In this document: positions 1,357 through 11,179 of the stretch, piece after piece
Numbering within the stretch: position 1 is the first letter of the stretch
Layout: each line of letters opens with the position of its first letter
Assembly (NCBI GenBank): GCA_051382305.1
Contig: JBBCAV010000201.1
Coordinates: forward strand, 1-11,179
Source: Bdellovibrionota bacterium FG-2
GTDB taxonomy: Bacteria > Bdellovibrionota > UBA1018
Reading direction: 5' to 3'
Length of the DNA stretch: 11,179 nt
Position numbers and translations under genes: made by a program
The notes under the pieces: generated by a model
Databases searched by the model: none
What the model was told of the DNA's origin: nothing
What the model saw: the letters and a program-made list of their open reading frames with translations, nothing else

Positions 1357-1407
1357 AATAGTGGACGGCTAAAACTGGACAGCTTTTTTTGAATTTTTCG
1401 ATCAACT
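1357..1407 (+). repeat. Left terminal inverted repeat (IRL) of the IS3-family element
   Basis: AATAGTGGACGGCTAAAACTGGACAG versus the reverse complement of the right end, TAAAGTGGATGGCTATAGTTGGACAG. The inner block CGATCAACT (1399-1407) mirrors AGTTGATCG (4673-4681). Confidence 0.8.
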
Positions 1408-1426
1408 ATCGTAGTAGAAGAAAGGG

Positions 1427-1717
1427 ATGGATAGTCGATTGATAAAGGGCAGAATTAGTTCAGAGGTGAAATCCAAGGTGGTTCTTGAGGCTTTGCGGGA
1501 AGTGCAGACGCTCAGTTAAATAGGGTCGCGTTATAAAGTGAGTCCAGCTCAAATATGCAAGTGGAAGAAATTGGCAGTGGGGAGCCTTCAGGAGGCGTTC
1601 TCTGGCAAGGGAAACCGCGATCTTCAGGAGAGAGAAGAGCTGGTGCGAGATTTGTATGAACAAATCGGTCGACAGAATGTCGAGATTGGCTGGTTAAAAA
1701 AAAGGCTGCAAATGTAG
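1427..1717 (+). pseudogene. IS3 transposase OrfA (HTH plus leucine zipper) with an internal nonsense codon
   Basis: My translation: MDSRLIKGRISSEVKSKVVLEALREVQTLS*IGSRYKVSPAQICKWKKLAVGSLQEAFSGKGNRDLQEREELVRDLYEQIGRQNVEIGWLKKRLQM*. This is a typical OrfA pattern (KSKVVLEAL, QI.KWK, LYEQIG...E..WLKK), with TAA at 1517-1519. It is missing from the ORF track because of the stop. Confidence 0.9.
1694..1705 (+). promoter_or_regulatory. Programmed -1 frameshift site (TTA AAA AAA AGG) joining orfA and orfB
   Basis: A8 run at 1696-1703 at the end of orfA. The -1 frame is open from here (KKAANVALSERKTWIDDSHSTLSVSNQCGLLSLPRSSFYY...) into the orfB domain, the canonical IS3 arrangement. Confidence 0.85.
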
Positions 1718-2104
1718 CACTTTCTGAAAGAAAGACGTGGATAGATGATAGTCATTCAACGCTTAGTGTCTCAAACCAGTGTGGGCTTCTGTCGTTGCCG
1801 CGATCTAGTTTTTACTACGTAAAGCGCCCCAGAGACCCTTTTGATCTCACGCTGATGCGATTGATTGATGAGCAATATCTCAAGACGCCGTTCTACGGCT
1901 CCAGGAGGATGAGTGTCGTGCTCAGCAACATGGGCTTTCCTATGGGCAGAGAGAAGGCACAGGCCTTAATGCGCACTATGGGAATTGAAGCGATTTATCC
2001 GAAGCCAAATCTCAGCAAGCGAAACCTAGATCACAAAATTTACCCTTATTTACTGCGAGCTTTGGACATCACACGGGTGAACCAGGTCTGGAGCACTGAC
2101 ATCA
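1702..2104 (+). CDS. IS3 transposase OrfB, 5' exon (HTH-like region through the first catalytic Asp)
   Basis: LPRSSFYY, TPFYGSRRM, LMRTMGIEAIYPKPNLS, HKIYPYLL, NQVWSTDI. The Asp codon GAC is at 2098-2100, and homology ends abruptly at the intron's GTGTG. Confidence 0.9.
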
Positions 2105-2360
2105 GTGTGCCACAGAGCACAAGAAAGGAGCTCAAGATGAGCTGAATGATCTTGTCGAAGCTGCATAGGAGATGGAGGACCTTGGCCCTCCGAGGTCGGT
2201 CTGTAGGGGTCGGCCTCAAACCACCCTAAGCGGCATTGGTCAAAAGCCGTTGTCGTGAACGTTAGGGAAAAGGCGCAGTTTATGCGTCAGGTATGGATCG
2301 AAAAGGCGCACAAAAGTAAACCATCATTCAATTGTCGAAACGCTTTAGACGACATCGGAA

Positions 2361-2382
2361 CCGGGCGTTGATGTTGACCCGG
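2361..2382 (+). ncRNA. Intron domain Id3 hairpin carrying EBS1 (UGAUGUU, 2369-2375)
   Basis: Stem CCGGG/CCCGG. The loop sequence UGAUGUU is complementary to the last 7 nt of the 5' exon, GACATCA (2098-2104), with one G-U pair. Confidence 0.85.
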
Positions 2383-2656
2383 GATAAATCCATCGGGAAC
2401 CTGCTTACTGGGTGGATGGTGTCCGGCATAGAGATGGCGCGAGTTCGATCCGGGCTTCTGTGCGGAACTGTGGGAACCTGCGGCTTGATGCAAAGGGAGA
2501 AGGCCAAGAGATGATCTCTCAAGGCTCAGAGTACCGAAGCAAGTTTGCAGGGGCGGACCAACTTGTTGTAGCGAAGAAGGGCCTGTAATGGGCTTGGAGC
2601 GAAGGGGTTGGGTTATCTAGCTGAATTCGTATGTCAACCAGGAATGGGAGGAGCAA

Positions 2657-3904
2657 GTGAAGACAGCAAAGTCGTTTGAGATTTCCAAGCAACAAGTATG
2701 GGAATCATACCTGTTGGTCAAAAAGAACGGATGGGCCGCGGGAGTAGATGAGGAATCTCTGGAGGATTTTGACAGAGATTTGAAGAATAACCTTTATCGG
2801 ATTTGGAATCGGATGACATCGGGGAGTTATTTTCCTCCTCCGGTGAAAGCAGTTCCGATTCCAAAGAAGTCAGGTGGAAAAAGAATCCTAGGAATACCGA
2901 CGGTCTCGGACAGAATCGCGCAGATGGTGGTGAAGCTTTGCCTGGAGCCTAAACTGGAGCCTCATTTTCATGAGGATTCATATGGGTACAGGCCGAACAA
3001 ATCCGCGCATCAAGCGATTGAAGTCACTCGCAAGCGTTGCTGGTGGCATGACTGGGTGCTGGAGTTTGATATTCGGGAACTCTTTGACAATATCGACCAT
3101 GAGCTTTTAATGAAGGCGGTTCGTACTCACACGGACTGCAAATGGATGCTACTTTACATCGAACGCTGGCTGAAGGCGCCGATGCAGATGGAAAATGAAG
3201 AACTGCTGAAGCGGGAAAAGGGCACCCCTCAAGGGGGCGTCGTTAGTCCACTCCTTGCAAATCTATTCCTCCACTATGCCTTTGATAAGTGGATGGTGAC
3301 CCGTTTTCCGACGCTCCCATTTTGCAGATACGCAGATGACGGACTTGTTCATTGTCGTAGCCTGGAGCAGGCGCAGTTTGTGCGGAAGATGCTCGATGAG
3401 CGATTCCGAAGCTGTGGCTTGGAACTTCATCCCGATAAGACCAAAGTGGCCTACTGCAAGGATATTCATCGACCGAAGGAGCACGAGCACATTCAATTTG
3501 ATTTTCTGGGATACACATTTCGACCCAGGAAATCGAAAGATCGATTCGGACGCATCTTCACGAACTTCGCTCCTGGTATGAGTGGCAAGGCTGCAACAGC
3601 CATTCGTCAGGAGATTCGGAGTTGGAGAATCCAATTGAAGAGCGATAAATCGATTGAGGATCTGGCCAAGATGTTTGCGCCAAAGATTCGTGGATGGGTG
3701 AACTACTACTGTCGGTTCCACAAGTCTGCTTTTCACGGTACTGCCGATCATCTAAATAACGCCATCAAAAGATGGGTTATGAGGAAATACAAGAAGCTGA
3801 AGGATCATCCACGCAAAGCGGGATATTGGGTGGGAGGAGTTGCGCATCGGCAGCCCCATCTGTTCCCACATTGGGGGATTGGTTTTAAGCCGTCGGCTGG
3901 ATAA
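2657..3904 (+). CDS. ltrA: Group II intron reverse transcriptase/maturase (RT plus X domains, no HNH endonuclease)
   Basis: 415 aa, GTG start with GGAGGAG RBS. Motifs: AAGVD, YFPPPVKAVPIPK, RILGIPTVSDRIAQ, SYGYRP, GTPQGGVVSPLLAN, YADD (3329-3340), LELHPDKT, FDFLGY, IRGWVNYY. It ends just before domain V. Confidence 0.97.
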   Translation: MKTAKSFEISKQQVWESYLLVKKNGWAAGVDEESLEDFDRDLKNNLYRIWNRMTSGSYFPPPVKAVPIPKKSGGKRILGIPTVSDRIAQMVVKLCLEPKLEPHFHEDSYGYRPNKSAHQAIEVTRKRCWWHDWVLEFDIRELFDNIDHELLMKAVRTHTDCKWMLLYIERWLKAPMQMENEELLKREKGTPQGGVVSPLLANLFLHYAFDKWMVTRFPTLPFCRYADDGLVHCRSLEQAQFVRKMLDERFRSCGLELHPDKTKVAYCKDIHRPKEHEHIQFDFLGYTFRPRKSKDRFGRIFTNFAPGMSGKAATAIRQEIRSWRIQLKSDKSIEDLAKMFAPKIRGWVNYYCRFHKSAFHGTADHLNNAIKRWVMRKYKKLKDHPRKAGYWVGGVAHRQPHLFPHWGIGFKPSAG

Positions 3905-3907
3905 TGG

Positions 3908-3981
3908 GAGCCGGATGAGTCGAGAGGTTCATGTCCGGTTCTGAGAGGGCCTGGGGGTGCGATTCCCCCGGGCTACTCACC
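3908..3981 (+). ncRNA. Group II intron catalytic domains V and VI
   Basis: DV is GAGCCGGATGAGTC-GAGA-GGTTCATGTCCGGTTC (34 nt, AGC triad, GNRA loop). DVI is GAGGGCCTGGGGG...CCCCCGGGCT-A-CTC with the branch A 7 nt from the 3' end. Confidence 0.95.
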
Positions 3982-4418
3982 CCTATTTACCTTTGGAAGG
4001 CGGCTTCGCGTATCTGGTAGCCGTTATTGATTGGTTTAGTAGATATGTTCTCGCATGGAGAATCAGCTCGACGTTGGAAAATGCATTCTGTATCGAAGCC
4101 CTTGAGGCAGCCCTAAGCACTGGAACCCCTGAAATTTTCAACACCGATCAGGGTTGCCAGTTTACCGCAAAACACTTCACAGACATCCTATTGAGCAACA
4201 ATATCAAAATCAGCATGGACTCAAAAGGACGGGCATTGGACAACATTTTTATAGAGCGCCTCTGGCGCTCCTACAAATACGAGGACCTTTACATCAAAGG
4301 ATACAGGACGATTCCCGAGGTAAAAAGAGGCACTCATGACTACATGAATTTCTATTGCAACGAGCGCCCACATCAACCCCTCAACTACCAAAACCCGTAT
4401 TCGGTCTTCATGACCTAG
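3982..4418 (+). CDS. IS3 transposase OrfB, 3' exon (integrase core with the second D and the E)
   Basis: YLPLEGGFAYLVAVIDWFSRYVLAW, PEIFNTDQGCQFT (Asp 4146-4148), SMDSKGRALDNIFIERLWRS (Glu 4254-4256, D-35-E spacing), ERPHQ. Confidence 0.93.
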
Positions 4419-4672
4419 GATTACTGATTATCAGAAACCCTCACCATTTTCCGGGATGCAATTGCCCTAGGCGGTAAGAGGTCGCCTCGTGTAGGTCATC
4501 CTGGGAGGTCATCTTCAATAATAAATCTGAAAAACTTCTCTCAGACGGAAAAGCCTTGAGCTACATCAAGAGATCCGAGATACTTAAATCTGGAAAAAGA
4601 AAATCTCAAATCCTTTTGATTGACAATCATTAAGAGGAAAGATAATCCAAATCACAGAAGTTACACAATCTC

Positions 4673-4724
4673 AGTTGATCGCAAAAACACTTCTTAAACT
4701 GTCCAACTATAGCCATCCACTTTA
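4673..4724 (-). repeat. Right terminal inverted repeat (IRR) of the IS3-family element
   Basis: CTGTCCAACTATAGCCATCCACTTTA (4699-4724) plus the inner AGTTGATCG (4673-4681), mirroring the left end. Confidence 0.8.
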
Positions 4725-5046: not shown

Positions 5047-5811
5047 TTAGAAAGCGCCGCCGACCACAAGCCCGCTGAATTTGTTGGACTCCGGCGAGTC
5101 ATACGAGCCCGGCTTTACGGCATCCGAAAGTTGCGAAATCGATTGAAGCGCGATGTAGCGTTTTTGTCCTGCCCCATTGTCACGGGTCAAACGAAGCTCT
5201 TTTAACATCTCATCTGAGACCAACTCATTGACGCCCGCAATTTGTGCACGAGTTTTTCTGCCAAGAGTTCCATCGAGTCGTGTGGCAGAATCGAGCTGAA
5301 GTCCAAGCCCAACTTCTGTATTGATCTCAAGCCCTGCGCCAAGCGCCGCGGCCTTCCCATGCGCTCCGATACCAACGTAAGGGCCAATTTCGGCTTTAAG
5401 CTTCACTTTGAGCGGATAGGAGGGTTCGCCCGTTGCTTCAAATCCAACCTTATATAAGGTGGCGATTGCATGACCCCTTCCTTTATCACCTACCACAGCC
5501 TGCAAATCAGCGCTGGTTGGAACATAGTAGGCCATGGCGTTGCGAGCGGTGTACTCCTTCAACACTGGAACCTTGTTATCTTCAAGCTGCAATCTAAACC
5601 GTGCCTGATCTAGACCTTCAACCATGATAGAACCCGTAGCCGTTGTCTTGCCATCATTCCCCGTCTTCTCAACGCCCAAGACGCCTTGTCCTGATGCTCC
5701 TACACCTAATTTAGTGTCAACAGACGTTGTCTTAGGGGCGTCGCCCGCGAATCCTAAAACTGGGCTAATCAAAAACGCACCTACAAGGGGCAACCAATAT
5801 AGCTTTTTCAT
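5047..5811 (-). CDS. Secreted hypothetical protein, probable outer-membrane beta-barrel (254 aa)
   Basis: Start at MKKLYWLPLVGAFLISPVLGFA (signal peptide) with AAGGAG/GA-rich RBS. It has many alternating-polarity Gly-rich strands and ends in FSGLVVGGAF, a terminal Phe resembling a beta-signal. Confidence 0.8.
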   Translation of the reverse strand: MKKLYWLPLVGAFLISPVLGFAGDAPKTTSVDTKLGVGASGQGVLGVEKTGNDGKTTATGSIMVEGLDQARFRLQLEDNKVPVLKEYTARNAMAYYVPTSADLQAVVGDKGRGHAIATLYKVGFEATGEPSYPLKVKLKAEIGPYVGIGAHGKAAALGAGLEINTEVGLGLQLDSATRLDGTLGRKTRAQIAGVNELVSDEMLKELRLTRDNGAGQKRYIALQSISQLSDAVKPGSYDSPESNKFSGLVVGGAF

Positions 5812-5840
5812 ATTTTCTCTCTCTCCTTGCGGGCAGTAAA

Positions 5841-5857
5841 AGCAAGGCCGATGCCAA
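5841..5857 (-). promoter_or_regulatory. sigma54 (RpoN) -24/-12 promoter
   Basis: The minus strand reads TTGGCATCGGCCTTGCT = TGGCAT-N5-TTGCT with exact GG-N10-GC spacing. The predicted TSS near 5830 is about 20 nt upstream of the ATG at 5811, and an AT-rich tract lies upstream. Confidence 0.7.
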
Positions 5858-6005
5858 ACTGCATTACTTACTACTTCATTAAAAAGGCATGAACTCAAGA
5901 AACTGAAATTATTGAATTTAATTTGAAGCGTGAAATTAAATACTCCACTACGCGCTCGGTTCCAGACTCGCAAGGAGTGCGCAACCGACCAAGGAACTGA
6001 CAGTT

Positions 6006-7634
6006 TTACTTCAAATTCCCCTTGGGCTTTTTGGCATTAAAAATCAAGGACACCGCCGATTTGAATCCCTTTTCATCTTGCATATAGCGAAGGGAAACCC
6101 CCTCAGCGATTTGCATCCAGACCATTGTTTCAGGCTTCATTCGCGAATCCACAAACCAATTAACGCCGGTGCAATCGGACTCAGGAATCCAATGTTTAAG
6201 ATTATGTTTCGATTGTTTGAGACCAAAACAATCCAGTTTCCCATTTCCTAAAAAATCAAACGTGCACTTCTCGCCAGATAAGCATAGGCCCTTTTCTTTG
6301 GGAGCGCGCCCAGCCATGCCGTCACTCCACTCGCACACAGCAAGTGTGCCATCCACAAAGGATGCCGCATCCACAGGGGGAAAGGGGTCCATATAAGCAT
6401 CATTGTGAAAGTTATAAAGAATGTTCCAGGCTTCCCGAAAATCCGGGCAAACGCCTTTTTTGTCAAAATCTTCCCGCAACTCAGCGCCCATTGAGGCCAC
6501 AACCCGATTGACTTCAAGCGGAGAATACATTTGTTTAATTCGTGCCAGGTGTTCGAAATCGAGCTGCCCGGGACAACGAACGGGGGGCTGCATGAGATTG
6601 CGAAGGCGGACATATTTAGAGACCGCCATGCGCAAATCACAGGACTTCAGGCACTGTTCTTTGCTTACAACCGATTTGCCAGCCTCGAGAACACTGTCCA
6701 TCCGATGACTTAAAACACCTTCTTTTGCAGAAAACGGGAGTCTCGTATTTTCATCAAAAATGGCGCCCGACAAGTCAGCGCCCGACAAATCAGCCTGACT
6801 CAAATCCACGCCACACAAGCAGGCACCGCGAAGCTTAGCATCGCGAAATTTTGCGCCCTTCGCGGACTTCACTAGAGAAAGATCCGCGCCGATAAGAATA
6901 GCCCCGCTCCAATCCGAATGATCCAGCACGGTATCGCGCAACTTCAAGCCTTCAGCAGCGACATTTCTCGCAGTGACATGGTTCAAATCATGACCACCAA
7001 AATTTACGTCGCTTAAAGTGGCGTAATCGAGTTTTCCCCCCTTGAAAAATTTAAACGGAGAGTTTCTACGATCATTAACTTCTTGCAGGCCTTTTTTCTG
7101 CACATCCTCCCACTCCTTCTGAGCCAGCGCCTCCCTTTGTGCCATCAGTTTTTCGCGCCGTTCAATGCGCTGCGAATGATAAAGTGTCTCTTCACTCTCC
7201 GGGTCGTGGGGCAGACGATCAAAACCCGGAGGAGAGTTTCGCCCACGCATTCTTGTCTCATCGACCATCGGATCGCCTTCAAACGGCAGTTCAAAATCCA
7301 TGACCATGCGGGAGGCATTGCGCAGTCGTTTACCGCCGTAGATATCCTGACGTCCTGGGATCGAGTAAGGATCCTCATTTTGAAAAGGGAGAGTGAGAGA
7401 CAAAAGCCATTCGAGCATCAAGGGCGCGGGTTCTTTAGAAAAATCCTTTGCATGCAAGTCTCTTCCCCGCAAATTTAACGGCAAATTTCCAAAGACATCC
7501 TTCTCAAGATAATCCCGCTGACTCTCTTCATTCGTTTGATTGAGATCACTGCCTTGTGTATGCAAAAGCACCGCGCAATTCACCACTCCCCATACAGCGA
7601 TTAAAATCGGAGAAAAAGAAATTCGCATCTTCAT
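6006..7634 (-). CDS. Secreted or membrane-anchored pentapeptide-repeat protein with a Cys-rich C-terminal domain (542 aa)
   Basis: Start at MKMRISFSPILIAVWGVVNCAVLL after a G-rich RBS. Central A(D/N)LXX repeats (GAILIGADLS..GAKFRDAKLRGACLCGVDLSQADLSGADLSGAIFD) at about 6750-7030, preceded by a coiled-coil-like stretch. Confidence 0.85.
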   Translation of the reverse strand: MKMRISFSPILIAVWGVVNCAVLLHTQGSDLNQTNEESQRDYLEKDVFGNLPLNLRGRDLHAKDFSKEPAPLMLEWLLSLTLPFQNEDPYSIPGRQDIYGGKRLRNASRMVMDFELPFEGDPMVDETRMRGRNSPPGFDRLPHDPESEETLYHSQRIERREKLMAQREALAQKEWEDVQKKGLQEVNDRRNSPFKFFKGGKLDYATLSDVNFGGHDLNHVTARNVAAEGLKLRDTVLDHSDWSGAILIGADLSLVKSAKGAKFRDAKLRGACLCGVDLSQADLSGADLSGAIFDENTRLPFSAKEGVLSHRMDSVLEAGKSVVSKEQCLKSCDLRMAVSKYVRLRNLMQPPVRCPGQLDFEHLARIKQMYSPLEVNRVVASMGAELREDFDKKGVCPDFREAWNILYNFHNDAYMDPFPPVDAASFVDGTLAVCEWSDGMAGRAPKEKGLCLSGEKCTFDFLGNGKLDCFGLKQSKHNLKHWIPESDCTGVNWFVDSRMKPETMVWMQIAEGVSLRYMQDEKGFKSAVSLIFNAKKPKGNLK

Positions 7635-7709
7635 TGTGCCCCCCTGCACCTTGTCTCCTTCAAGAGTATCTCGAACCGATTGATAATGCATCTGCCAGGA
7701 AATTGACGC

Positions 7710-9704
7710 TCAAAACGAAACTTTCACACTTCTCAGATCAATCAACTGACGAGGCGCCGCCAATATCCCGGGGATCCCAGGCAGGCCCAGCACGCCAGGG
7801 ACAGCAGGTACAGAGGCAGAAGCAATCCTTACAACGCGGCCCCGATCCGTTTGGAAGATTTGAGTCAGCGAACCGAGCTCAATAACGACGGACTCCCGCT
7901 TGCCCACCCCGTTATCAGGCATGACATCGTATAAAACTCTCAAAGGCGCGGTGGAATCCCGCACAAACAACACGACACTCTCCGAAGTCGCCTCGAAAAT
8001 CTGAGCATTCGTAGTCACAAAGTTTCGTAAAGTGCCCAATACCACGGCCGAGTAATTAGGACTCGGAACAAAGCTTAGGTAAAAGACCCGATGCTCCGGT
8101 CCAAATTCATAGGTCATGCGCTCCGCGGTTTGCCCCCGCAGGGCATCGCTGGGCAGAGGGAGAGTGATCAAATTCACGGGCGAAAAAACGGGCGCCGAGT
8201 AGTCACTTGCTATCGGACCGCCCAGTAAATTGCCCGGGCCCGTGACTTTCCGCAACCGAAGATCCGCAAATTGTCGAAACAAAGAGGTGTTCCGATGAAT
8301 CTCTGCGATATTGTCAGTGACCAAATAAGCATCGTTGCGAACCTCTCCCCGAACCTCGCCAAAAATACCCGCGCGCAACGCGGCCTCAAGATTCTCTCGC
8401 TCGACGTTCAACACCTGATCACTGCTCACGAGCACGCCGATCGTGCCATGACTGATCACGGCGATCGCCGCCGTCACCAAAGCGATCAAGACGATCAAGG
8501 AGTAACGAAGCATCGGATAAGAATGGATTCTCGCCATACTCATCAGTCTCCAACACCCAAGCGCCGCAAGCGTAATGGCTCCGAAAAAAGAAAGCAGCAC
8601 AGGGAGATAACTATAACCCCAGCCGATCCACGTGGAGGCCTGGTATTTAGGAGAAAATACGATGAGTGCAACGGGCAAAAACACAAACAGAAGTCCCAAC
8701 ACGAGAATCCCCAATGGATTGATTGACCGTCTAGAATCTCGCACAGAGTGTACGACATAGCCCACGACCGCCGCCTCCGATATAAAAAGGCCGACGTCGA
8801 GCCAGCCCAGTTGATTCCAAAGCAGCCTAAAAAACTCATTGAGCGGAAAGTGAAAATCTTCGCGCACCCCCGCGAGACTCACAAAACTTAAGGGAACGAC
8901 CGCACTCACATGCCGAAGCATTGAGACAAACACTCTGTTGATATCAAACAGCGGAATGTACGCCCCATTGTTTCCCACCCAGTGAAGCCCACCCGCAAGT
9001 CGCAAGAGAAGAACCGTACTCGCCGCAACCAGCGTCGCGCAGAAAAAAGGCATTCCGGCCCACAACAGTTCGCGTACTTTGATCCCCTCCCCGGTCTGTT
9101 TTCGGTGAATCACCCAAAGGGCCATGGGCATCAGAAAAAAAGTGTAGGTCATTTCGTAAGAAAACAAACCGATAACAGCCAGGGATAAACTAAGAAGCCA
9201 AAGCCTTCGGGAATTGCGTTGCAAGTAGTCCCAATAAAAACACAAAGACAGTGCCGTCAGCAGAAGGACCCCTTGCATCAACCAGTGGTAGCCAAGAATA
9301 GGATCGGGCCCAATTCGAATTTGAAAAAAACACGGGGCCAGAACCAAAAACAGCAACGCCAATCTGAGCGATCCCGAAACCCGACGAACTAAGCTTGCAA
9401 ACACTGCGATATCTAGAACGATCAACAAAATCGACCCGAGCTTGTACGCGAAACGCCCCAGAAAATACATCGGCACCGTGGCCGAGACTGCGGACAAGGG
9501 GAGAAAACGCCCCTGCCCAGCAAACAGCGCCCGAATCCCGACCGCCATGATCCCCAAAAGCCCGGTGTTGTGCTCCCGCATCGCACCCCGGACGGTTGAA
9601 AGGATGTGATCATCAAAAGAATAACCGCTGTCCGTGATGGGCCAAAGAACCACAAGCGCATTGAAAAGCGCAAGAATTGCGATGAGCCAGAATCTACGCC
9701 TCAT
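7710..9704 (-). CDS. Polytopic membrane protein, probable GT-C-fold glycosyltransferase (664 aa)
   Basis: About 11-13 hydrophobic segments. There is an acidic pair in the first external loop after TM1 (GYSFDDH), followed by GRFLPL, an FSYE motif and a soluble C-terminal domain. The CDS call is secure; the function is inferred. Confidence 0.7.
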   Translation of the reverse strand: MRRRFWLIAILALFNALVVLWPITDSGYSFDDHILSTVRGAMREHNTGLLGIMAVGIRALFAGQGRFLPLSAVSATVPMYFLGRFAYKLGSILLIVLDIAVFASLVRRVSGSLRLALLFLVLAPCFFQIRIGPDPILGYHWLMQGVLLLTALSLCFYWDYLQRNSRRLWLLSLSLAVIGLFSYEMTYTFFLMPMALWVIHRKQTGEGIKVRELLWAGMPFFCATLVAASTVLLLRLAGGLHWVGNNGAYIPLFDINRVFVSMLRHVSAVVPLSFVSLAGVREDFHFPLNEFFRLLWNQLGWLDVGLFISEAAVVGYVVHSVRDSRRSINPLGILVLGLLFVFLPVALIVFSPKYQASTWIGWGYSYLPVLLSFFGAITLAALGCWRLMSMARIHSYPMLRYSLIVLIALVTAAIAVISHGTIGVLVSSDQVLNVERENLEAALRAGIFGEVRGEVRNDAYLVTDNIAEIHRNTSLFRQFADLRLRKVTGPGNLLGGPIASDYSAPVFSPVNLITLPLPSDALRGQTAERMTYEFGPEHRVFYLSFVPSPNYSAVVLGTLRNFVTTNAQIFEATSESVVLFVRDSTAPLRVLYDVMPDNGVGKRESVVIELGSLTQIFQTDRGRVVRIASASVPAVPGVLGLPGIPGILAAPRQLIDLRSVKVSF

Positions 9705-9727: not shown

Positions 9728-10936
9728 CTAAAAACAGGCGCTTGCGGCGTCAGCAGTCAGCGCCGTCGTGAACTGCACTTCATGCAAAGCACTGAGCGGA
9801 ATAAGTTTGAAAATGAATGCCGCATCCAGCGGCAAAGAGCCTCCAAACGCCGTCGCGCACTCCGAAAGCGGGACAAATTTAGCAAGAGCGACTTTTGCGC
9901 CCAACTTTACACAGCGTTGGCTTAGGGGACTGTCCTTCTTCGCCGCAATGTCGGCGGCGGTCAAGGGAACCGTCGCGGGATCCCAACTCTGTGCATAGAT
10001 ATGAGTACCCGCATCGTTTGATTTAATGCGGTTGATGTATTTATTTGCCCCCTGGTCTCTCACCTGAATCGTTTCAAAAGAAGAACCACTCAGAGTGCCT
10101 GCGTAACCCGACAGACTTGGTCCGTCCGCCCCATAGCTACTCAGCGTGGACCCCATTCCGAAGTACATCACAAAGTTATTAGTCACGTCTTTGATGCCCG
10201 CATTAAGCATTGTAGAGTCAATACTTACAAAATATTTCCCTTTGGCTGGATCGTTACTCACGAACCCCCACCACATTGAGCCGCCCTGGGTGCTGTCCTT
10301 TGAAAACCCGTTGATAATGGGGCTTTGTGGAACGCCCCAGCTTGCGTACCAAGGGATCGCCGTCGAAATATCTACTGCTTTTCCAGCGGACGCCTTACAG
10401 GTATCGAAATTGGCAACATTAGAAACTTTGGAATCAAAAGCACAAGGATCAAAACCAAAGTTCACATACTTGGCTTCCATCGAACTCAATGTGGCACAAG
10501 CCGTAGGGTCAGAAATCATCGTGGGTTTGTTATACTTGGTGCCCGCCGAATTGCAGGAAGGACAATCAAAGCAAGTCCCGGCGGCAATTCCGGCAGCCGT
10601 GCACTCCCCGTTGTAATCCATGGCCCAGACCTTCGAAAAAATTTCACCCGAGAAACTGTCGGTGGTGCTCACCATGAGACATTCATCACCACTTGCGCAA
10701 CCGTCTGCGAGATAAGTGCTCTGATTCTCAGTCACCAGATCCATGACGGAAGTGTCAATAAAGGCTGCAGTACCCCCTGTTTTAAATCCGCTCGGCACCG
10801 CATCGCTCGTGAGTTTCGCAAAATCCGCGTAGGCAGCCCCCGGATGCTCATCCCCGCTTGATTTTCGCCCGCACGAAACAGAGGCGAGAACGCTACAAGA
10901 TAGAACCAAAACAATCCCCAAACGAACAGCTGTCAT
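9728..10936 (-). CDS. Cys-rich hypothetical lipoprotein (402 aa)
   Basis: ATG at 10936 preceded by a strong AAGGAGG RBS. Signal MTAVRLGIVLVLSCSVLASVS-C-GRKSS with a lipobox-like Cys22, 12 further Cys, and a Ser/Thr/Ala/Gly-rich composition. Confidence 0.85.
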   Translation of the reverse strand: MTAVRLGIVLVLSCSVLASVSCGRKSSGDEHPGAAYADFAKLTSDAVPSGFKTGGTAAFIDTSVMDLVTENQSTYLADGCASGDECLMVSTTDSFSGEIFSKVWAMDYNGECTAAGIAAGTCFDCPSCNSAGTKYNKPTMISDPTACATLSSMEAKYVNFGFDPCAFDSKVSNVANFDTCKASAGKAVDISTAIPWYASWGVPQSPIINGFSKDSTQGGSMWWGFVSNDPAKGKYFVSIDSTMLNAGIKDVTNNFVMYFGMGSTLSSYGADGPSLSGYAGTLSGSSFETIQVRDQGANKYINRIKSNDAGTHIYAQSWDPATVPLTAADIAAKKDSPLSQRCVKLGAKVALAKFVPLSECATAFGGSLPLDAAFIFKLIPLSALHEVQFTTALTADAASACF

Positions 10937-11179
10937 ACTAAGCCCTCCTTGACTGTAAGTATTCGATCGCTTGATTATTTCAGAGCGGGCTCGTTCTAGC
11001 AACAAAATAGAAACGGCTATCTTCTGGCCACTTCTTGTTCCGTAGACACCCTGAACGTAAGCATTCAGTAAACCCGCGTTAGGTTTTTCTGATGATTCCG
11101 AAATAAGAGCTGGACACACCAAAGAGTCCGCGATAATGTTTCTGTAGCGCATGTGCTACTCATCCTCGCCGAGCAATCA

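Follow-up and report, generated by a model that had tools for sequence, protein, structure and literature searches.

A group II intron resembling RmInt1 in the first-Asp motif of an IS3-family transposase gene of Bdellovibrionota bacterium FG-2

The DNA considered here, hereafter the window, is a stretch of 11,179 nucleotides from Bdellovibrionota bacterium FG-2 (assembly GCA_051382305.1, contig JBBCAV010000201.1). It contains an insertion sequence (IS) of the IS3 family at positions 1358..4724 on the + strand, 3367 bp long or 1490 bp without its insert, and within the transposase gene of this element a class D/IIB3-like group II intron of 1877 nt (2105..3981, + strand), recognized by Rfam matches and with its ends fixed by empty-site alleles. 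All features described below lie on the + strand unless stated otherwise. The limits of the IS were set at the points where other copies cease matching, and these end points are shared by the contig ends of C333 and C404, by contigs of sequencing run X2 and by a complete copy in genome G001. The left inverted repeat (1358..1383, ATAGTGGACGGCTAAAACTGGACAG...) aligns with the reverse complement of the right one (4699..4724), and the C404 and X2 contig matches end at 4724. The terminal inverted repeats, about 26 bp, are imperfect; the same 28-nt left end is also found on contigs C58, C194 and C365.

The element has the two-frame organization of its family. The first frame, orfA (IS3 OrfA; 1427..1717), comprises 96 codons, one of them an in-frame TAA (1517-1519), and matches the NCBIfam IS3 transposase model NF033516 weakly over positions 22-81 (E 6.6e-4). 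Reading the sequence further reveals a slippery run of eight adenines (A8; 1696..1703), A AAA AAA G in the orfA frame, with the -1 frame from 1702 corresponding to orfB; by analogy with other IS3-family elements this run is a putative programmed -1 frameshift signal. The intact copy in G001 shows the same succession of orfA, A8 run and -1 orfB. Exon 1 of orfB (1702..2104; HTH_21, NF033516 positions 88-223) ends with ...W-S-T-D-I and the first base, A, of a Thr codon, and exon 2 (3982..4418; rve and rve_3, NF033516 positions 225-365) supplies the remaining CC, continues with Y-L-P-L-E-G-G... and reaches its stop codon at 4416-4418. The two orfB pieces score 81.2 and 148.9 bits, each below the whole-protein cutoff of 160, and the model positions they cover leave out exactly one residue, that of the split Thr codon.

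Several properties of the transposase given in a preliminary description of the locus were borne out by recounting. In the exon-2 protein (3984-4415), Asp55 (NTDQG) and Glu91 (ERLW) are 35 residues apart by manual count, constituting the D-35-E described as lying in frame downstream. The Asp of W-S-T-D-I-T-Y we take to be the first catalytic residue of the DDE triad; the corresponding W-S-T-D-V-T-Y of a paralogous IS elsewhere in the genome (contig C58) aligns with W-x-x-D-I-T of retroviral integrase at weak E-values of 0.01-0.1. Adding the 92 orfA codons up to the A8 run to the 279 codons of both exons gives a fused OrfAB of 371 aa, the length that had been estimated for the ancestral protein. 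Without splicing, the orfB reading terminates at a stop codon at 2143-2145, 13 codons inside the intron, again as described. Since translation of orfB ends inside the intron, production of the transposase would depend on splicing in addition to the -1 frameshift at the A8 run.

The 5' exon ends with ...TGGAGCACTGACATCA at 2104 (TGG AGC ACT GAC ATC A), and the intron opens at 2105 with GTGTGC (GTGTGCCACAG), its first five bases, GTGTG, agreeing with the group II 5' consensus GUGYG. It closes with CTACTCACC at 3981 (in a longer reading, ...GGGCTACTCACC), and the 3' exon starts with CCTATTTACCT at 3982 (CC TAT TTA CCT). The insertion thus splits the Thr codon of W-S-T-D-I-T-Y between bases 1 and 2, with the intron in sense orientation relative to orfB. 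The domain 1 core (2174..2292) matches the full Rfam model group-II-D1D4-2 (positions 1-118) with 100.6 bits (gathering score 36; E 3e-20), and Intron_gpII, covering domains 5 and 6, is matched at full length by 3906-3981 with 54.3 bits (gathering score 40; E 1.2e-08). Domain 5 (3908..3941), as indicated by the Rfam alignment and the fold, is 34 nt long, with an AGC triad, a 2-nt bulge and a GAGA tetraloop; domain 6 (3943..3978; Rfam and fold) presents a bulged branch-point A at 3975, the 7th base from the 3' end. The predicted fold of 3906-3981 has a free energy of -42.7 kcal/mol (z -3.68), and none of 200 shuffled sequences was equally stable.

In domain 4, between domains 1 and 5, the intron encodes a protein of 415 aa with a GTG start (intron-encoded protein, IEP; 2657..3904), comprising a reverse transcriptase (RT) domain with the YADD motif, a maturase X domain and the C-terminal motif VGGVAHRQPHLFPHW. 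The IEP matches RVT_1 (E 1.3e-40) and GIIM (E 2.1e-16), and scores 416.6 bits against TIGR04416, the model of group II intron reverse transcriptase/maturase (cutoff 300). A sequence search of the PDB with its RT returned RTs of class C, ML and CL introns at E-values of 1e-32 to 1e-41, which confirms a group II RT without specifying the class. No endonuclease (D/En) domain was found in the IEP, which carries RVT_1 and GIIM only and stops 24 residues past the GIIM match, in line with the earlier view of an intron lacking endonuclease. Taken together, the element is a complete group II intron bearing an open reading frame (ORF), far beyond what chance could produce, and its ends, ribozyme domains and RT/maturase frame uphold the first claim made about the locus, namely that such an intron sits in the first-Asp motif of an IS3 transposase.

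The boundaries of the intron are proven because natural empty-site alleles skip exactly positions 2105-3981. One of these alleles is in G001, the genome of a sister species in the same genus as the window genome, where contig C144 (4222-5711) holds an intact intron-free copy of the IS that is 93-94% identical and 1490 bp long, i.e. exactly 3367 minus 1877. Its junction reads GGAGCATTGACATCA|CATACTTACC, with GACATCA|CATAC encoding D-I-T-Y; OrfA is uninterrupted and OrfB runs continuously through the site (...VNQVWSIDITYLPLEGGFAYLVAIIDWFSRY..., WSIDITYLP). The second allele comes from the lake water of a separate metagenome study (run X2), one contig of which covers 1604-2104 and 3987-4724 at about 91-94% identity and carries CATAC in place of 3982-3986, giving the same empty site and again D-I-T-Y. 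The differences between filled and empty sites, ACC versus ACA and TAT versus TAC, are synonymous. The more distant paralogue on C58, with orfB pieces 54% and 62% identical to those of the window, is also free of any interruption (...NQVWSTDVTYIPMDSGFMYLVAV...) and reads WSTDVTYIP, that is D-V-T-Y, at the site, where its IBS1 is GACGUGA. Precise removal of the intron, which the preliminary description had predicted to restore the orfB frame, is therefore realized in two natural alleles. The outcome that this description had named as refuting its claim, homologues without D-I-T-Y at the junction, did not arise; the two alleles read D-I-T-Y and the paralogue D-V-T-Y.

Among the genomes, a free site of the same IS was present in the congeneric G001 only. 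The window genome itself has no assembled intron-free copy spanning the site, only fragments on contigs C333, C11, C222 and C404 in addition to the one paralogue; hence homing to every intron-free copy, as had been proposed, is putative. Two of these fragments, C11:3366-3462 and C222:1-118 (G000), correspond to window positions 1511-1607 and 1649-1766 and continue into unrelated sequence in the middle of the element, which may reflect truncation of old copies, additional insertions or breaks in the assembly. The C222 junction recurs among the loose ends of run X1.

Considering that the window genome is a metagenome-assembled genome (MAG) of 433 contigs, 85% complete, with IS fragments at contig ends, the contig could in principle be a chimera among repeat copies, in which case the nesting, or the TAA in orfA, would not belong to a real haplotype. 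Two features of run X1 are compatible with such an error: the stretch is split into 8 listed pieces in the X1 contig set, and the only X1 contig over position 1517 has C, not T, at a depth of 29.2 of 29.2. However, independent X1 contigs bridge both junctions of the intron (1737-2133 and 2104-4716), the IS minus the intron has exactly the length of the G001 copy, and the same nesting at the same base recurs in complete or long contigs of other organisms (loci L004-L007 and L010, described below). We therefore regard an assembly artefact as very improbable.

To place the intron among the group II classes, it was compared with RmInt1, which we located on pSymA of Sinorhizobium meliloti by searching with the window RT. 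According to PMC4238363, RmInt1 is 1884 nt long, the length that we also measured for the element on pSymA, and this source together with PMC4615759 places it in the transposase gene of ISRm2011-2, an element of the IS630-Tc1 family. RmInt1 starts with GTGTGCTGCAGAGGCACGGAAGGAGTTCAACATGAACT and ends with GGCCTACTCACC|CC; the window intron starts with GTGTGCCACAGAGCACAAGAAAGGAGCTCAAGATGAGCT and ends with GGGCTACTCACC|CC. The 5' ends are thus alike (GTGTGC...GGAGNTCAANATGANCT) and the 3' ends identical (CTACTCACC|CC). A CC at the 3' end in place of AY, and four consecutive C spanning the 3' splice site, are named as peculiarities of RmInt1 and class D in PMC4238363, and both the non-consensus CC and the C run are present in the window, where the 3' end CUACUCACC|CC is identical to that on pSymA. 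The two IEPs are 53% identical over residues 3-406.

The resemblance extends to the overall design of the two introns: 1877 versus 1884 nt, IEPs of similar size (about 415-419 aa) that comprise RT and X domains but lack D/En, a domain 1 that can be aligned throughout, the exon-binding site 1 (EBS1) in the same hairpin loop, and a G-C pair between EBS3 and its intron-binding site (IBS3). Each is inserted in sense orientation in the transposase gene of an IS, which makes translation stop within the intron and the transposase depend on splicing. They differ in the host element, which is of the IS630-Tc1 family in the case of RmInt1 and of the IS3 family in the window, with two frames, a -1 frameshift and an rve-type DDE transposase. 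Moreover, the target of the window intron is the first-Asp motif, and no clear EBS2-IBS2 pairing was found for it. On these grounds the intron is filed as class D/IIB3-like, of the RmInt1 type. Two other assignments were rejected. A 5-nt domain 5 loop marks IIE/IIF introns in PMC3753933, and the 4-nt loop of the window domain 5 (GAGA) argues against classes E and F; against class C stand the 34-nt domain 5, the full-length EBS1 and the lack of a terminator upstream of the intron. Class D introns in transposase or integrase genes have been listed before, with Pr.ae.I3, Pr.vi.I1 and Zu.pr.I1 named in PMC4238363.

Relatives of the intron were collected by a scan of one genome per prokaryotic species, which yielded 28 loci with RTs 46-75% identical to that of the window. 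Exons were called by tblastn, supplemented by reading L006 and L007 by eye. At the homologous junction, 12 of the 28 loci have an IS3-like exon, and these belong to Desulfobacterota, an alphaproteobacterium and Candidatus Velthaea; four more loci share another common target, two lie in a YADD motif and ten have no target call. An IS3-like exon 1 directly abuts the intron in L004, L005, L009, L010, L020 and L023, and an IS3-like exon 2 directly follows the intron in L004, L005, L007, L008, L009, L010, L019, L020, L021 and L026, with L006 reading W-V-A-D-I|T-Y-I and L007 W-A-G-D-I|T-Y-L. The transposase pieces of these 12 loci are 29-57% identical to those of the window, down to 23% in L008, and the junctions conform to the site consensus GAY-ATH-A|CN-TAY. 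A further copy of the intron, in run X5, is 92.5% identical and resides in a different exon, ..W-S-W-D-I-T|K-I-H-T. In three of the relatives (L003, L009 and L020), insertions of 1.4-1.9 kb lie within domain 1 or the IEP region, adding another level to elements that are already nested.

In run X1, a loose end before 2104 joins the same intron to another 5' exon, ..Q-V-W-S-W-D-I. This second 5' exon is absent from the MAG and suggests that the sample contains another IS3-like site occupied by the intron.

A quick maximum-likelihood tree was calculated from 21 full-length RTs, 14 of 35 having been omitted as partial. RmInt1 is nested in a clade of 19 sequences together with the window, from which the RT of E.c.I4, an intron of E. 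coli, and an unrelated RT of the window genome are set apart with 99% support in the SH-like approximate likelihood-ratio test (SH-aLRT). The class D C-terminal motif, given as LX3AX3PXLF[V/A]HW in PMC4615759, has its counterpart in the window in VGGVAHRQPHLFPHW (VX3AX3PXLFPHW). A looser pattern, XX3AX3PXLFXHW, occurs in 10 of the 21 RTs examined, including RmInt1, which is a strict match, and is absent from E.c.I4 and from the RT on contig C19.

The question of how the intron recognizes its target can be addressed from the same comparison. EBS1 was found by a scan for complementarity, its hairpin by predicted folding, and the loop was then compared across relatives. The candidate EBS1, UGAUGUU in a hairpin loop (2369..2375), pairs with IBS1 GACAUCA (2098-2104) by 7 bp including one G-U, and the same loop is occupied in RmInt1 by UUUCGUC, which pairs with GAUGAGA. 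Among the eight IS3-site introns with a readable 5' junction, five (the window, L004, L005, L007 and L023) pair at all 7 EBS1-IBS1 positions, with a compensating change at position -2, which is C:G in the window and L007 and A:U in L004, L005 and L023. Gammaproteobacterial relatives with another exon (..GAGTTGT) have ACAACT in the EBS1 loop. Sister introns in the gammaproteobacterial MAGs of L011, L014, L015 and L018 have a common target of their own, ..GTCAA-N-GA-N-TTGY, and matching changes in EBS1. Two further contacts are predicted by homology, with positions taken from PMC4238363: EBS3 is G2431, aligned to RmInt1 position 329, with IBS3 C3982 as its predicted partner, and gamma is G2555, aligned to RmInt1 position 452, with gamma' C3981 as its predicted partner.

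The interpretation that accommodates these data, and that we consider very probable, is that an RmInt1-type intron (class D, IIB3) retrohomed into the Thr codon of IS3 orfB and that its boundaries, ribozyme core, RT/maturase and EBS1-IBS1 pairing have stayed intact. On this view the intron is part of a lineage, represented in several phyla, that has settled time and again in one strongly conserved segment of IS3-like transposase genes which otherwise diverge. Several observations speak against it or limit it. The C-terminal motif agrees with the class D motif at six of eight fixed positions, the two deviations being L to V and V/A to P. The references in the tree comprise one class D and one class A intron and none of classes B, C, E, F, CL or ML, and the IS3-site group, compatible with a single clade, has a weak SH-aLRT support of 47. 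The EBS1-IBS1 pairing has one mismatch in L009 and two each in L006 and L010, so that pairing alone does not account for all insertions. For EBS2-IBS2, complementarity scans and inspection of the loop homologous to the ATGAA loop of RmInt1 gave at most 3-4 bp in the window, and across relatives this loop does not covary consistently, so that EBS2 was left unassigned. In neither the window nor G001 are the IS ends flanked by a target-site duplication; IS3-family elements are expected to produce one of 3-4 bp. Finally, the TAA at 1517, carried by a single MAG contig, may stem from an assembly error or represent a minor variant.

This TAA was overlooked in the first reading of the locus. The orfA frame reads ...EVQTLS*IGSRYKVSPAQICKWKK, with TAA as codon 31, and the same position is CAA (Gln) in the C11 fragment, the X1 contig, the X2 relative and the G001 copy, and Glu in the C58 paralogue. 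As assembled, the copy cannot make OrfA beyond residue 30 owing to the in-frame TAA, nor a full OrfAB even after splicing and frameshifting. The proposal that transposase output needs both splicing and a -1 frameshift hence fits the layout, with its A8 site and interrupted orfB, but is overridden in this particular copy as assembled, where the TAA in orfA blocks OrfAB anyway. The IS copy as assembled is probably non-autonomous and would have to obtain transposase in trans in order to move. Judging from its preserved parts, the intron still looks competent.

A more pessimistic account would hold that IS and intron are both dead relics and that the nesting is decaying junk. The nonsense codon in orfA is what one would expect of such a pair, as are the missing target-site duplication, the truncated IS fragments in the genome (C11, C222) and the degraded state of several relatives, in which the intron contains inserts or the RT is truncated (L003, L009, L019, L020, L023). 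For the intron, however, the expected decay is not seen: the 415-codon frame of the IEP is open and scores at the level of a full RT/maturase, and YADD, domain 5, the branch-point A of domain 6, EBS1 and the bases aligned to EBS3 and gamma are all intact. In addition, the depth in X1 contigs is 25.7 over the intron versus 13.4 over the 5' exon, contig depths being a weak measure, and the second 5' exon joined to the same intron in that run hints at more than one near-identical copy. Overall, we find it unlikely that both elements are fossils.

If retrohoming of an RmInt1-type intron is accepted as the origin of the arrangement, its course can be outlined by homology to RmInt1 (PMC4238363, PMC4615759). 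The intron would have retrohomed into the sense strand of orfB in a 1490-bp IS3-family element and would be spliced, with the assistance of its maturase, from the IS transcript. Its mobility would be endonuclease-independent, proceeding by reverse splicing into DNA at replication forks, and because an endonuclease is lacking, priming would come from the nascent lagging strand. The EBS3-IBS3 and gamma-gamma' pairs are predicted on the same basis, and ligation of the exons at the C run may be deliberately poor, as RmInt1 biology suggests.

The last point leads to the idea, proposed earlier for RmInt1 in ISRm2011-2, that the intron is a domesticated brake, kept because its inefficient or inaccurate splicing throttles the transposase and curbs the spread of the IS. 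In its favor, the window has the same four-C run (ACC|CC) that is linked to unproductive splicing products, and a C run is noted in other class D introns interrupting transposase and integrase genes, both according to PMC4238363. On the other hand, the sequence offers nothing by which a brake could be told from simple selfish homing, the TAA has already inactivated the host IS copy, and the occurrence of sister lineages in RT genes of other introns is in keeping with an opportunistic choice of conserved targets. We consider domestication improbable.

An intron at nearly the same position of IS3-family transposases has been described before. E.c.I4, or IntA, of E. coli and Shigella lacks an endonuclease and, according to PMC3522654, which cites Han 2004, homes into a conserved region of orfB in the IS3-like elements IS629, IS911, ISEc16 and ISEc31; it belongs to class A (PMC3552965). 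We found 15 identical copies of its RT in E. coli IAI39, in agreement with PMC3522654. At one of these, the 5' exon reads ...L-W-V-A-D-F-T-Y plus G, followed by GTGTGCCC, and the exon frame resumes with (V)-S-T-W-Q-G-F-V-Y after ...CTCTAC, the 3' end being placed by the frame and the AC end, not by an empty site. E.c.I4 and the window intron are alike in lacking an endonuclease, in using several IS3-family orfB genes and in targeting the same motif. They differ in the RT, which in E.c.I4 is 28% identical to that of the window (residues 20-379) and has no class D motif, and in the insertion point, which in E.c.I4 lies 6 nt farther downstream, within the codon that follows Tyr instead of the Thr codon. 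An E.c.I4-type (class A) identity of the window intron was rejected on account of the 28% RT identity and the 6-nt displacement. From the sequences, the two look like independent, convergent users of one conserved target.

The arrangement is thus already known in kind, with RmInt1 in ISRm2011-2 and E.c.I4 in IS3-family elements in print. In the literature we found no account of a class D lineage at the IS3 D-I-T-Y site, and such introns may be listed in the Zimmerly intron database or in supplementary tables. A DNA search of E. coli returned only RT-gene stretches about 64% identical, from an intron beside an ISAs1 transposase fragment, which are uninformative for the IS3 site, and in a relative on a Vibrio plasmid (61% RT identity) neither a transposase nor an RT exon is annotated around the intron.

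Conserved active-site codons are targets in other relatives as well. In L016 and L024, a group II RT is interrupted by the intron at its Y-A-D-D motif. The window genome contains a second class D-like intron, at C313:13140-15039 (within C313:12299-15614 / L044:3300-6612), with 66% nucleotide identity to the first and an RT 56% identical. It interrupts the RT ORF of a different group II intron exactly after Y-A-D-D, splitting a Leu codon after base 1, and the two pieces of the host RT match TIGR04416 positions 7-215 and 219-352. The same YADD-nested layout is present on plasmids of Bradyrhizobium elkanii and Clostridium pasteurianum. Nesting of group II introns was reportedly described by Dai and Zimmerly in 2003 for archaeal introns. 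The nested introns and the window intron have in common that sister lineages target a conserved active-site motif in the enzyme of another selfish element, with the difference that the enzyme is a DDE transposase in the window and an RT in the nested introns.

These patterns raise the possibility of a class D sublineage, spread across phyla, that is specialized on the first-Asp codons of IS3 elements, with sisters on YADD codons and with E.c.I4 as a convergent case, such that targeting of active-site codons would be recurrent. We consider this proposal about as likely as not. If it is true, hopping between IS species becomes possible even where their transposases are only 29-57% identical.

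Outside the parts discussed so far, the IS has a non-coding stretch of about 280 nt (4419..4698) between the orfB stop and the right repeat, which is also present in the intron-free copies of G001 and X2 and has no match to any Rfam family. The ends of the IS have many separate matches, 77-93% identical, in G018, a genome of the same family and another genus (contigs C196, C94, C42, C194, C82, C37, C84 and C143). Each is confined to the initial 140-190 nt or the final 125-260 nt of the element, which suggests either that a related IS has retained similar ends or that these are short non-autonomous derivatives resembling miniature inverted-repeat transposable elements. Farther along the window, the - strand contains three long ORFs without a Pfam or NCBIfam match (5047-5973, 7710-9704 and 9728-11152; 308, 664 and 474 aa), which adjoin the gene of a pentapeptide-repeat protein (6006-7691).

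The locus represents a clean natural case of a parasite within a parasite. With the filled and the empty site both recorded in congeneric genomes, it offers a ready target for assays of retrohoming and splicing with a class D intron outside rhizobia. In annotation, split 'IS3 transposase pseudogenes' around an ltrA gene should be interpreted as one interrupted IS. For introns that lack an endonuclease, recurrent targeting of this kind may explain how ample and harmless homing sites are found, sites that travel between hosts.

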